NCBI GenBank assembly: GCA_030646995.1
Contig: JAUSKF010000002.1
Coordinates: 76,092 to 140,091 of the forward strand
DNA length: 64,000 bases
From: a bacterium
Lineage (GTDB): Bacteria; Patescibacteriota; Minisyncoccia; UBA6257; WO2-44-18
Direction: 5' to 3'
Part shown: positions 50,291 to 62,316 of the stretch, in pieces
How positions within the stretch are numbered: position 1 is the stretch's first letter
Layout: every line of letters starts with the position of its first letter
Made by a program: the position numbers and the translations under genes
The notes under the pieces: model-generated
What the model was told of the DNA's origin: nothing
Seen by the model: the letters and a program-made list of their open reading frames with translations, nothing else
Databases searched by the model: none

Positions 50291-50532
50291 TGCTCCTTTG
50301 CTGGATTCGAATTATTAAACTGCTAAACGGAATTATACAGTTTGGGAACGAATTGGGCAACGAGTGATATCTAAATTTTTATATCTTCAGTCTACTCCCG
50401 CTTTTCAAGATTATAGAAGTGCATAAGTACTTTGTCGGTTGTTTTATCCCGCTACGCGGGATCCCGCCTTATTTATATTTAAAAATAGTGCGGCGGGACA
50501 AAATTCGGATTTCATGGTATCATCCAGGCAAT

Positions 50533-51240
50533 ATGGACAATGAAATTTTCCCGATGCGTCTCAATAAATATCTCGCTTGGAAAAAACTGGCTAGCCGCCG
50601 TGAAGCGGACAGGTTGATTTCAGACAAAAAAGTACTCATCAATGACAGGGTGGCGGTTTTGGGTGATAAAGTTTCAGAAAAAGACGTTGTAAAAATCATC
50701 GAAAGAAAGGGTAAAGAAGAACTTCCAAAATTAACCGTCGCACTAAACAAGCCACGCGGTTTGATTTCGGCCATTAATGAGAAGGGCGGCGAAACAATCT
50801 TTGATTATCTACCTCAATACAAACACCTCAACGCCGTCGGCCGGCTAGATAAAGAAAGCGAGGGTTTAATTCTGCTTTCCAACGATGGAGTTCTCACCGC
50901 CGTCGTTACCAGCGAAAAACATCTAATTGAAAAGGAATACGAGGTTCAGGTTTGGGAAAAAATTCAACCGTTGAGTCTTAGGCGCTTAGCGGAAGGCGTT
51001 CTACTGGATGGCAAAATGACTCTGCCGGCCGTAGTAGAGCAGCTAAATGACATGTCTTTTTCGATAGTTTTAAAAGAAGGACGCAAACATCAGATTCGCC
51101 GGATGGCCGCCGAGACACATCTGACAATTAAAAATTTGAAAAGAATTCGTATAGGGAAAATAACACTCAAAGAAATTGAAAAACCCGGCGAATATCGGGA
51201 ACTGAAGCCGGAAGAAGTAAATAAACTAAAAAACGCCTAA
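50533..51240 (+). CDS. RsuA/RluB/RluF-family pseudouridine synthase with S4 domain
   Basis: RLNKYLA...SRREAD, LNKPRG, GRLDKESEGL, EGRKHQIRRM. Confidence 0.93.
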   Translation: MDNEIFPMRLNKYLAWKKLASRREADRLISDKKVLINDRVAVLGDKVSEKDVVKIIERKGKEELPKLTVALNKPRGLISAINEKGGETIFDYLPQYKHLNAVGRLDKESEGLILLSNDGVLTAVVTSEKHLIEKEYEVQVWEKIQPLSLRRLAEGVLLDGKMTLPAVVEQLNDMSFSIVLKEGRKHQIRRMAAETHLTIKNLKRIRIGKITLKEIEKPGEYRELKPEEVNKLKNA

Positions 51241-51255
51241 GGCGGTTTTTAGTTT
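51223..51255. terminator. bidirectional terminator
   Basis: AAACTAAAAAACGCC-TAA-GGCGGTTTTTAGTTT. Confidence 0.65.
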
Positions 51256-51276
51256 TGGTGCCGCGGGAGGGAATCG
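51256..51276 (-). repeat. displaced duplicate of the tRNA-Phe 3' end carrying CCA (att-like)
   Basis: Minus strand CGATTCCCTCCCGCGGCACCA; 51258-51274 is identical to 51455-51471. Confidence 0.9.
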
Positions 51277-51413
51277 CCTACAACTCTCGCCTCGCCGTCG
51301 CTCGGTTCGGTCGCAGGCCGCCCCTCGCGACCCCGCAAGCTTGCGGGGTATCGCTGCGTTCTTCAATATCCCTACGCGAGCCAAACAATTGGCTCGCTCC
51401 CGCCGCTACAAAC

Positions 51414-51450
51414 AAAAAATAAAGCGCCTTTTCGTGGCGCTTTATTTTTC
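51414..51450 (-). terminator. terminator after tRNA-Phe
   Basis: AAAAATAAAGCGCC-TTTTCGT-GGCGCTTTATTTTT. Confidence 0.7.
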
Positions 51451-51455
51451 TGTTG

Positions 51456-51761
51456 TGCCGCGGGAGGGAATTGAACCCCCGACGCCAGCCTCTTCCAAAG
51501 GCTAGTTGGACTATCTCATTCCCGTTCTTAAAAACTTAAGAGTGCGGGATCGGGCGCTATTGCAGGATTATTGTTGGGACTCACCTGCTAGTCTCTACAC
51601 CTTCCAGAAAACTTAAACCCTTTCTGGCTCGGCTCGGGATTGTCGTATGCATATTTTACTATACATCCGGTTTTCCCCGAATTCACCCAATTTTTCGATC
51701 CGCATTACTACGGAAGGCCCCAAAGATCTAGGGCTGCGCTCTACCACTGAGCTACCGCGGC
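51456..51761 (-). tRNA. trnF: tRNA-Phe(GAA), intron-containing; exons 51761-51730 and 51495-51456
   Basis: Joined exons fold as a cloverleaf: GCCGCGG TA GCTC AGTGGTA GAGC G CAGCC CT GAA GA GGCTG GCGTC GGGGG TTCAATT CCCTC CCGCGGC A. Confidence 0.93.
51496..51729 (-). ncRNA. group I self-splicing intron (234 nt) at tRNA position 33/34
   Basis: Follows U33 and ends in G; P AATTCGGGGAA, Q AATCCCGAGC, R GTAGAGACTA, S ATGAGATAGTCC; P1 GCCCU/GGGGC, P3 TTGGGTG/CGCCCGA, P7 GACTA/TAGTC. Confidence 0.92.
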
Positions 51762-51764
51762 ATA

Positions 51765-52469
51765 CTAACTAAAATTGTGGTTCTTAACGCCATCTATCCA
51801 GCCAATTATGCGATGGAATAGCTTGGTATCACTTATTCTAACCTGCAAAACCCCATAAGGCAAGCGATTAAATGGCCTCTTTCCCATACTGGATTTACTA
51901 ATTCCAAGATAGGTTTTATTAAAGTTCTCCCTGGGAATACCGGTTGTCTTAACCCAATACTTCAGGGTCGCCTCAGCATTCATATGTTGAAAAATTCTTA
52001 AATTGGCTTTTATTTTCTCGACCGGTACTTTACAAATCTTTTTAATAAACGCCAAGAAGACATTGATTAAAACCGGATCAGCATTAGTAAGACTAATGGG
52101 GTGATATGTGACTTCCCTTCCACCTCTCACAATCGGCCGCTTATACCCCTCCGCCCAGTACAACGCCAAACCGATAAAAAATAGATTCTGAATAGAGATA
52201 TTTGCAATCTCGCCGTGCGCTAATTTCTGGATTTCTTCTTTTCTTTGCAGAGCCAAATGAGTTTGATTTTTATTTCTTTTCAAAAGGCCTTCCAACGATT
52301 TTTGTTTGGACCGATTCTCAATTTTTTCCCTTGCACTCGCGGATAAAACTATGTTTTTCAACCATAGCGACAAAGTAGACTTAGAAATACCAGGCAAGGT
52401 TTTCTGGATTTCGCTATAACTCTTGCCCTGCAACCGTAGCTTAATGGCCGAGAATTTATCATTACGCAT
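51765..52469 (-). CDS. HTH plus LAGLIDADG-like homing-endonuclease-fold protein
   Basis: N-terminal HTH (GKSYSEI...ISKSTLSLW); IGLALYWAEG helix followed by ISLTNADP..I. Confidence 0.75.
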   Translation of the reverse strand: MRNDKFSAIKLRLQGKSYSEIQKTLPGISKSTLSLWLKNIVLSASAREKIENRSKQKSLEGLLKRNKNQTHLALQRKEEIQKLAHGEIANISIQNLFFIGLALYWAEGYKRPIVRGGREVTYHPISLTNADPVLINVFLAFIKKICKVPVEKIKANLRIFQHMNAEATLKYWVKTTGIPRENFNKTYLGISKSSMGKRPFNRLPYGVLQVRISDTKLFHRIIGWIDGVKNHNFS

Positions 52470-52597
52470 TATATATATCATAGCGCCGTCGTTCGATTAT
52501 ATCAACCCTCCCGCGACACAAAAATCAATAAATAAAAATCCCCGCCACTATGCCATAGCATAGTGGCGGATATAAAAAACAGGCCCTAGGGCCTGTT

Positions 52598-52870
52598 TTA
52601 TTTTTCCCGATACAAAATGAATTTTTGAGTACAAATGATACCAATCATCACCAAAGCAAAAACGTTGACCCAAATCAAATGAGGATTGTCGAGAACCAAA
52701 CCATAAGCGCACCAGAGGATATGACTGACTAGTGGCCAAGCGGCATAGAAAGCCGTCAGACCAACCTTCTTTTCCCGATAGTGCTTAATAATTTGCGTCG
52801 GCGAAGCCACTGAAAAGAAAATGAAAGTGGCCACCGAAGCCGACCATCCGAGCATATCGGCGAGGGTCAT
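52598..52870 (-). CDS. SemiSWEET/PQ-loop family 3-TM transporter-like protein
   Basis: 90 aa, three TM helices, P.QIIK.Y, LW..YG, N motifs. Confidence 0.7.
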   Translation of the reverse strand: MTLADMLGWSASVATFIFFSVASPTQIIKHYREKKVGLTAFYAAWPLVSHILWCAYGLVLDNPHLIWVNVFALVMIGIICTQKFILYREK

Positions 52871-52917
52871 CCGGACTCCTTTTTATAACCAAAGGGTTCT
52901 GCTCGTATTTTAGCTAT

Positions 52918-54093
52918 TTACCGCTCTTTGGCAATCTTCTCGCGGATTTCTTTCAAAAGTTTTTCCATAAAAGAAAGATTGTGGATAGTGGTCAGAATCG
53001 GGCCAAGCATTTCCTTGGCGTTAAAAAGATGGCTAATGTAAGCGCGGGAATAATTGGCGCAAGTATAACAACCGCAATCTTTATCAATCGGATTCTTATC
53101 TTTTCCATAGCGGCCGGATTTTATATTCAAGCGTTCGCCGCGCAGTAAAGCTCCTCCATTCCTTCCTAAGCGAGTCGGCGCTACGCAATCGAAGGTATCT
53201 ATCCCCCGCTTCACCGCTTCCCAAATATCTTCCTCCGAGCCGATTCCCAACAAATGCCGCGGTTTATTTTCCGGCAATAATGGAATCGTCCAATCCAAAA
53301 TCTTATACATATCTTTTTTAGACTTACCCAAGGAACCACCGATGCCAAAGCCATCAAATCCCATTCCGCCAATTAGTTTCGCGCTTTTCAAACGTAAATC
53401 CTTATAAGCTCCACCCTGCACGATACCGAAAAGAGCCTGACTTTGGACTAACGACTTTGGACTAACGACTTTGGACTTGAATGCCGCTAAGCAACGCTTA
53501 GCCCAATTATGTGTGCGCTCCAAAGATTTTTTAGTATATGCGTAGTCATGTAAAGGGGAAGTGCATTCATCAAAGGCAAAAATCAAATCAGCGCCTAGAT
53601 TCTCCTGAATTTTTATAGATTTTTCAGGAGTGAAGAAATGCTTTGAGCCGTCTAAATGCGAACGAAATTCAACTCCGTCATCGGTGATAGTGGTCAAACT
53701 CTGTCCGCGCGGAGAATTTTGCTTGTGCGCAAGCTCGGCTTCCGACGGGAAGATATTCGCAATCTTGCTCACGCCATGTTCAATTGCCGCCCCTAAGCTA
53801 AAGGCCTGAAAGCCGCCGCTGTCTGTCCAGATCGGCCGATCCCAGTTCATAAACTTATGAAGCTTACCAATTCTTTTCACCGTCAAATCTCCCGGCCTCA
53901 AGTAAAGGTGGTAGGTGTTACAAAGCAAAGATTCAGAGCCGATGGCTTTTAATTGATCGGTGGTTAAGCCCTTAATCGCCGCCTGCGTCGCTACGGGAAT
54001 AAAAGCCGGAGTATTAATCACGCCGTGCTTTGTGTGAATTTCTCCAAGTCTTGCGCGGGACTTTTTTGATTTCTTTAAAATCTTAAATTCCAT
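52918..54093 (-). CDS. tgt: tRNA-guanine transglycosylase
   Basis: NTYHL.LRPG, TDSGGFQ, GIVQGG, PRHLLG, FDCV.PTR, CxCxxC, HNL. Confidence 0.97.
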   Translation of the reverse strand: MEFKILKKSKKSRARLGEIHTKHGVINTPAFIPVATQAAIKGLTTDQLKAIGSESLLCNTYHLYLRPGDLTVKRIGKLHKFMNWDRPIWTDSGGFQAFSLGAAIEHGVSKIANIFPSEAELAHKQNSPRGQSLTTITDDGVEFRSHLDGSKHFFTPEKSIKIQENLGADLIFAFDECTSPLHDYAYTKKSLERTHNWAKRCLAAFKSKVVSPKSLVQSQALFGIVQGGAYKDLRLKSAKLIGGMGFDGFGIGGSLGKSKKDMYKILDWTIPLLPENKPRHLLGIGSEEDIWEAVKRGIDTFDCVAPTRLGRNGGALLRGERLNIKSGRYGKDKNPIDKDCGCYTCANYSRAYISHLFNAKEMLGPILTTIHNLSFMEKLLKEIREKIAKER

Positions 54094-54140
54094 AGAATAC
54101 TTAATACTAGCTACTTTCTACTAACTACTAAAATTGTGCG

Positions 54141-54704
54141 CTAGGCGCGCACGATTTTATAAGGCTTCTTTGTCAAGTCTACTATCTTAGAGCCTTTTGT
54201 CTTTTTATTGATACCTGCATGGATAACCGCATCGATCATTTCCGCCGTTTTCTTGAACATTTCCTTATATTGGGAAGGGTCCCTCAACGGATCTTTTCCC
54301 GCAACGTTAGCGCTGGTCGCTATGATTGGCCTATCGAAGTAACGAAACAATTCCTTGGTCCAACGATGTTTGGCCAAACGAAAAGCGCCGGTGTGCTTCA
54401 TCGCCGCCAACGGAGAAAGATTTTTAGCTTTTAAAATGAAAGTGGTCGGCTTCTTAGACTTAGTCATCGCTTTTTTCTGGTCGGGACTAAAAGAAGCGTA
54501 CTCCGCCAACATATTAAAATCTTTAACCAGAATCGGAAAAGCCTTACCAATCTGGCGGCCTTTTATCTGATAGATCTTCAACAGCGCCTGCGGATTAGTG
54601 GCATCACAGCCGAGTCCATACAGAGTTTCAGTCGGAAAAATCATCACGCCGCCGGCATTAAGGATTTGAGTGACTTCTTGAGGTTTTAAGCTTATTTTAG
54701 GCAT
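54141..54704 (-). CDS. tsaC: threonylcarbamoyl-AMP synthase (YrdC/Sua5 family)
   Basis: PTETLYGL, KGR, TSAN, SKIVD. Confidence 0.92.
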   Translation of the reverse strand: MPKISLKPQEVTQILNAGGVMIFPTETLYGLGCDATNPQALLKIYQIKGRQIGKAFPILVKDFNMLAEYASFSPDQKKAMTKSKKPTTFILKAKNLSPLAAMKHTGAFRLAKHRWTKELFRYFDRPIIATSANVAGKDPLRDPSQYKEMFKKTAEMIDAVIHAGINKKTKGSKIVDLTKKPYKIVRA

Positions 54705-62285: not shown

Positions 62286-62316
62286 AAAAATCCCGCGACA
62301 CAAACGCGGGATTTTT
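62286..62316. terminator. bidirectional terminator
   Basis: AAAAATCCCGCG-ACACAAA-CGCGGGATTTTT between convergent genes. Confidence 0.75.

Follow-up and report, generated by a model that had tools for sequence, protein, structure and literature searches.

A probable free-standing LAGLIDADG endonuclease beside an intron-bearing tRNA-Phe gene in Patescibacteria: a candidate for chromosomal collaborative homing

In the window, which is the whole stretch of 64,000 nucleotides of patescibacterial DNA that was analysed, the open reading frame P0001 adjoins a tRNA-Phe gene (trnF) interrupted by a group I intron. The modelled fold of its product and its linkage to this intron make P0001 a probable free-standing LAGLIDADG endonuclease that would cut DNA. 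There are three separate things at the locus: the endonuclease gene together with the intron, an inverted scar of a tRNA 3' end, and an unrelated small insert. For the gene and the intron, sequence comparison and predicted models point, with slightly better than even confidence, to collaborative homing on a bacterial chromosome.

P0001 (51765..52481, reverse strand) encodes 238 amino acids, with the conserved start probably at Met5, and, as the initial annotation had stated, the frame (52481..51765) stops 3 nt before the 5' end of trnF on the same strand. Residues 9-43 form a helix-turn-helix (HTH) according to Pfam; in the predicted model the HTH is followed by a helix of 44 residues and an alpha/beta domain, which reaches a pLDDT of 90.5 when modelled alone. 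The Pfam scan of P0001 gave no LAGLIDADG profile, and LAGLIDADG_3 matches 3 of 118 family members weakly (best E 0.013), P0001 not among them. The NCBIfam scan returned no meaningful match, PDB sequence searches with the full-length or the domain profile of the family returned nothing, and Foldseek with the model returned no match at E<=0.001. The LAGLIDADG fold proposed initially was recovered by structure comparison. When the domain alone was compared with 48,161 chains in VIA-align, as the search with the full-length model was dominated by the long helix, the best match was I-DmoI (Z 7.5, rmsd 3.3, 90 aligned), followed by E-DreI (Z 7.2), the TliVMA intein endonuclease (Z 7.0) and WhiA (Z 6.4). 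LAGLIDADG proteins make up eight of the top 11 rows and the top three are nucleases (Z 7.0-7.5), all Z values being moderate and below 8. WhiA is a LAGLIDADG protein that is not known to cut DNA; the fold alone is no proof of cleavage.

The motif LYWAEG contains Glu111-Gly112, two residues that close the motif helix and do not vary in alignments of 116 and 118 rows; Glu111 is the acidic residue at the catalytic position, as expected of a LAGLIDADG enzyme. Two copies of P0001 gave a predicted dimer score of 0.62, whereas the best control scored 0.01. Of 30 known pairs 20 attained this mark, as did 1 of 23 single chains; resemblance to solved dimers may lie behind the score. The dimer runs have at least 92% of their contacts in common (pLDDT >=79), and the predicted interface is the motif helix, where Glu111 contacts Glu111. 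P0001 is predicted to be a homodimer that combines an HTH with the LAGLIDADG fold. It shares with I-DmoI, I-CreI and I-CeuI the fold (VIA-align), a single motif helix ending in Glu-Gly and a dimer, here predicted, through that helix; unlike them it is not intron-encoded, has an extra HTH and the 44-residue helix, and has no Pfam LAGLIDADG match. The homologues named come from Patescibacteria, the genome-contig search with the single P0001 protein yielded one locus, and viral contigs hold eight distant relatives, the closest with 36% identity along most of its length, and no member of the core clade.

The whole trnF(GAA) spans 51761..51455 on the reverse strand. ARAGORN places the 5' exon, ending at U33, at 51730..51761 and the 3' exon, with CCA not encoded, at 51455..51495; between positions 33 and 34 lies an ORF-less intron of 234 nt (51496..51729), and a terminator-like hairpin follows the gene at 51408..51456 on the same strand. 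The intron scores 41.4 bits (E 1e-7) against Rfam RF00028 (Intron_gpI), below the gathering score of 50. Its group I character is visible in the core structure, in the P1 U.G pair at the 5' splice site and the terminal G, both read from the sequence, and in the restored host RNA, since removal in silico gives a normal 73-nt tRNA-Phe(GAA). This is the sole trnF that ARAGORN detects in the genome (97.8% complete), and trnF(GAA) is expected to be essential. One junction is common to 52 of the 54 introns compared. The intron of G010, a genome from the same family as the window genome, groups with that of G174 from another family and not with the window's, which indicates that the intron moves. Introns without the endonuclease gene are scattered across the intron tree, and the correlation between the distances of introns and those of proteins is only slight (rho 0.15, 65 of 2000 permutations). 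Group I introns in Patescibacteria tRNA genes are reportedly the subject, by its title, of a 2025 study by Nakagawa et al. Within the titles and abstract openings covered, neither the gene family nor the trnF 33/34 intron is described.

How closely the gene is tied to tRNAs was seen at two levels. In the window genome each of the four paralogues stops 3-17 nt short of a tRNA (Phe, Ser, Gly, Lys). Of 124 distinct family loci, a detector found 94 arranged in this way, and several of the other 30 are intron-bearing or distant cases. Adjacency to tRNAs, initially claimed for this locus, is therefore a trait of the family. The core clade of P0001 (331-393 bits; next best 224) occurs in 13 of 301 genomes of the class, from 11 families, and in all 13 an intron-bearing trnF lies within about 600 nt of the clade gene. 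Four further carriers (G035, G038, G377 and G619, two from other classes) also have an intron-bearing trnF, so that in all of these a free-standing gene adjoins an ORF-less intron, which is a trait of collaborative homing. Among class genomes the clade gene stands beside trnF in 13 of 28 intron-bearing genomes and in none of 89 intronless ones, counts that include kin genomes and are not independent, so the Fisher value is overstated. The state of trnF was assigned by two patterns (90 intronless, 28 intron-bearing, the remaining class genomes left unclassified), and the 28 resulted from checking 39 pattern-positive genomes, dropping 13 false matches and adding two carriers that the patterns had missed. 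One carrier, G272, has an extra intronless trnF on another contig with flanks like those of the G013 locus, and this copy is probably contamination. The trnF flanks are alike in L230 (G272:C29) and L209 (G013:C16), which belong to different families, and bin contamination is probable there.

The initial annotation had proposed that the enzyme homes into the tRNA or helps to splice it. The first half is compatible with the strong link to intron-bearing trnF. An obligatory maturase, on the other hand, should be present wherever the intron is, and it is unlikely because 14 of the 28 intron-bearing genomes, which are 85-100% complete, have no clade gene at E<=1e-45; inspection of these 14 loci found none beside trnF, several loci ending near the tRNA. 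The position of the gene leads in the same direction. Among 75 distinct clade proteins, 32 genes precede an intron-bearing trnF, 10 follow one, 11 are divergent and 12 lie by an intronless trnF; the other 10 comprise four intron-bearing loci, four intronless loci and two at a contig end. As the gene can stand before, after or divergent from trnF, it follows trnF and has no fixed insertion point. Such freedom fits collaborative homing better than a maturase, and it is to be expected if the intron, and not the position of the gene, protects the target. At L004/L018 (G038:C4:6699-7408), where the intron-bearing trnF is divergent, the clade member is broken up over two frames, possibly by decay after homing.

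Carriers with an intact target require attention: none of the 89 intronless class genomes has the clade, yet 16 of the 75 clade loci adjoin an intronless trnF. All 16 are on metagenome contigs, their motif is intact, and in a quick protein tree they fall mostly into one subclade nested among intron-linked rows, with genes adjoining trnF at -23 to +23 nt. The exact intron-target sequence is kept at four of nine junctions recovered from these loci, and no residue cleanly separates the subclade from the rest (7 against 66 rows). The proteins of the intronless subclade must be inactive, retargeted or silent, or have their target elsewhere. Intronless tRNAs also neighbour the other paralogues of the window genome, and distant homologues lie directly behind an intronless trnF at 4 of 30 intronless loci fetched and in G292.

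Comparison shows the fold, the linkage, the reversed orientation and the scar; cutting, a target site, immunity and a repair route are our inferences. P0001 would cut the DNA of an intronless trnF at the anticodon or close to it, and the intron, by interrupting the cut site, would protect its carrier. Repair from the donor allele would usually move the intron alone and sometimes the whole block of promoter, gene and trnF. In the window the block would have taken the place of the resident trnF in the opposite orientation, and the inverted copy would be what remains of the former 3' end and terminator; the direct copy would come from an independent small insert, and the gene could regulate itself through a YGAAC box. 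A known intron-encoded endonuclease is aimed, as P0001 would be, at an anticodon region interrupted by a group I intron, whereas the window gene lies outside the intron.

Collaborative homing has been described from phages. In cyanophage S-PM2, F-CphI is encoded beside an ORF-less psbA group I intron, according to PMC6083498 and PMC3984707. The pattern of the clade, in which the intron occurs without the gene and the position of the gene is free, fits collaborative homing as defined in PMC3984707 and PMC6083498. Compared with F-CphI as described there, the window differs in being a bacterial chromosome with a tRNA gene instead of a phage with psbA, in having a LAGLIDADG fold and an HTH, with putative cutting and immunity, instead of an Endo VII motif, and in the variable gene position and reversed landings of its clade.

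The promoter of the gene (TTGATA-17-TATGAT, 52477..52505, reverse strand) scores 10 of 12 and contains a YGAAC box (52495-52491) 8 nt before the -10 box. Within 60 nt ahead of the start, GAAC is present at 42 of 65 core loci, as against a mean of 12 and a maximum of 22 in shuffled sequence, and it is present in 3 of 46 gene-less trnF promoters; YGAAC stands 7-10 nt before the -10 box at 33 of 67 core loci as against 5 of 597 genome ORFs. In more distant family members an inverted repeat extends across the -10, and the box makes up one of its arms. The box is a likely operator for the HTH of P0001, and co-transcription of the gene with trnF is likely from the 3-nt gap. GTTCGATT at 52491, initially read as T-loop-like, was ruled out as a T-loop relic, being this clade-conserved promoter box on the other strand; chance may or may not account for how the box resembles the T-loop consensus.

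A different kind of homing would be directed at leaders. In this alternative, which we regard as unlikely, the endonuclease cuts the promoter or 5' end of tRNA genes, its own position at that site gives it protection, and the intron is a passenger in the copied tract. The family loci that end at a tRNA 5' end (94 of 124) do so mostly at intronless tRNAs, the four window-genome paralogues occupy such ends, and the intronless subclade keeps within -23 to +23 nt of trnF, all of which agrees with a leader target. At 21 of 65 resolved loci, however, the gene lies behind or divergent from the intron-bearing trnF and the trnF leader is empty, some of these loci (L116, L121) have no tRNA directly downstream, and the clade is missing from all 89 intronless class genomes.

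Still less probable is a protein that does not cut and is retained next to the intron-bearing tRNA, acting either as a facultative maturase or, like WhiA, as a regulator of tRNA promoters. Against such a helper, half of the intron genomes (14 of 28) show no such gene although trnF(GAA) is expected to be essential; G253 without the gene and G272 with it have sister introns and common flanks, presence is patchy within genera, and the glutamate at the catalytic position is invariant. The likely co-transcription with trnF, the HTH domain, the conserved promoter box, the presence of WhiA among the fold matches and the persistence of the gene beside intronless trnF in one subclade would all suit a helper.

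The left flank of the locus is a gene with an S4 domain and a pseudouridine synthase (50557..51240, forward strand) and the right flank consists of an MtN3/SWEET-like gene and tgt (52598..54093, reverse strand); both are common to the congener G003, where an intronless trnF lies between the same flanks without an endonuclease gene. The trnF exons are identical in G003 and the window. The comparison of these orthologous loci revealed that the orientation of trnF is opposite: in G003 it points towards MtN3 and is followed by an insert, a duplicate of the 3' end and a terminator that aligns with window 52564-52660, and in G001 and G002 it points towards tgt as well. The inverted sequence at 52506..52521 (forward strand) matches the trnF 3' end at 15 of 16 positions, as initially reported, and occupies the site of the G003 3' end or its duplicate, in G003 orientation. 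Two hairpins follow at 52541..52599 (forward strand), the second aligning with the terminator behind the G003 trnF locus. It appears reasonably well supported by these alignments that the block is reversed relative to congeners and that the old trnF 3' end was left as a scar; the block may either have arrived reversed or have flipped after arrival.

A chance match with the hairpin at 62286, raised at first as a caveat, was rejected. The window contains five matches of the 3'-end pattern where 0.55 are expected, that hairpin is only a 14-nt partial match, and only three places in the genome differ from the 16-mer by one position at most, all of them at the trnF locus, so the 62286 hairpin does not explain the inverted copy. 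Public contigs from the probable source run, which may underlie the assembly, match 50300-51482 and 51735-53400 exactly, and a 170-nt contig from another study is identical over 52413-52582; no strand-changing joint was present among the public contigs, which drop rare variants and may thus miss an inversion.

The same scar architecture is found in G044 and G310 when compared with their closest gene-less congener, G235, the left junction being the promoter with an acceptor-stem repeat and the right junction the native T-loop. It is present also at L040 and at L035, where the scar derives from tRNA-Gly. Altogether inverted scars occur at 5 of 70 gene loci, from four lineages, against 0 of 56 gene-less trnF loci, an enrichment that is weak alone (Fisher p 0.056; 4/48 vs 0/49); no direct 5'-end scar was found upstream of the gene at the 70 loci. 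In the congener G004 an inverted trnF scar lies at the promoter of a different LAGLIDADG gene with two motifs, and it resembles the T-stem of congeners more than that of the resident tRNA. As trnF is flipped also in genomes without the endonuclease gene (G005, G013, G016, G193, G292), the enzyme is only a putative cause of the flip.

Two-motif LAGLIDADG genes (L247:843-1517 in G004; L232/L154 in G115) match Pfam LAGLIDADG_3 (E 8e-8) and overlap the 5' end of an intronless trnF. They occupy 2 of 48 loci, both reversed relative to most congeners, and would represent a second endonuclease family in the same trnF niche.

The direct copy has a different origin. At 51256..51274 (reverse strand) the 3' end of trnF is repeated, beginning in the T-loop and with CCA, and this copy forms the right end of a hairpin-rich small insert behind trnF (51275..51407, reverse strand); the copy had been reported initially, and 51258-51274 is identical to 51455-51471 at 17 of 17 positions. 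An exact 14-mer copy of the 3' end lies 122-198 nt downstream at 8 of 46 tRNAs of the window genome. At trnF loci direct copies occur at similar rates with the gene (3 of 46) and without it (5 of 58), and the small insert is therefore independent of the endonuclease gene. Inserts at tRNAs belong to at least three sequence families; that of the window is 70-73% alike to homologues at L036, with the endonuclease gene, and L164, without it, and the insert at the G003 trnF is 81% alike to that at tRNA-Arg(GCG) of the window genome. Integrative elements that target tRNAs leave att duplicates of the tRNA 3' end. The window insert is similar in that its direct copy starts in the T-loop and restores the 3' end, and differs in being about 150 nt long, having no integrase and not enclosing the gene. 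One insert family in G000, behind tRNA-Glu, Thr, Arg, Lys and Leu, opens with a reverse T-loop copy, GAATCGAA, and has GTTCG near its far end, resembling the operator arms of the endonuclease promoters. At six loci (L212, L214, L219, L221, L225, L033) hairpin-rich leader inserts of 100-170 nt duplicate the trnF 5' end, as a mirror image of the 3'-duplicating inserts.

A transposable or invertible cassette with tRNA-derived repeats as its ends, as the initial annotation had pictured, is very improbable: although the block lies between 51246-51271 and 52506-52531, which are an inverted pair with 81% identity, and the orientation differs from congeners, the inverted copy is a leftover 3' end conserved at only 5 of 70 gene loci, the direct copies lie behind the tRNA and are not linked to the gene, G044 and G310 have the scar and no direct duplicate, and no recombinase was found among the neighbouring ORFs scanned.

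A wider picture can be drawn as a speculation, which we think doubtful as a whole. The patescibacterial trnF would be a hot spot for at least two families of free-standing LAGLIDADG genes, which would move by homing as blocks of promoter, gene and tRNA, replace the essential resident, and land reversed by means of the acceptor-stem inverted repeat of the tRNA on one side and a break in the T-loop on the other. The HTH would recognise a GTTC box resembling the T-loop, in its own promoter as well as in tRNA genes, and the clade would be the chromosomal collaborative-homing partner of the tRNA intron, one step before a mobile intron. If true, the reading of the GTTC box would explain why the family is aimed at tRNA genes.

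Chromosomal collaborative homing at an essential tRNA, if true, would explain the spread of ORF-less tRNA introns in Patescibacteria. The loci would offer a natural before-and-after series for studying how mobile introns originate, with the empty site, the intron only, the intron with the gene, and the gene without the intron. The reversed landings would demonstrate horizontal replacement of tRNA genes in these reduced genomes, with scars that can be read, and the putative cut target is predictable.

Several further features lie around the locus and elsewhere in the genome. Over window 50557-54704, trnF lies amid RNA-modification genes (pseudouridine synthase, tgt, Sua5/YrdC), and tgt adjoins trnF in 10 family genomes besides the window genome. 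A REP-like palindrome with an A-rich lead, present in at least three genome copies, lies at window 52527-52570, G000:C4:119678-119710 and C2:153411-153455. A second tRNA group I intron is located at G000:C1:7779-8103 (minus strand); ARAGORN calls the tRNA Thr, but its exons look like those of a tRNA-Asn(GTT) that is interrupted within the anticodon (35/36). Into the 5' end of this tRNA runs a short ORF that is GIY-YIG-like by eye.
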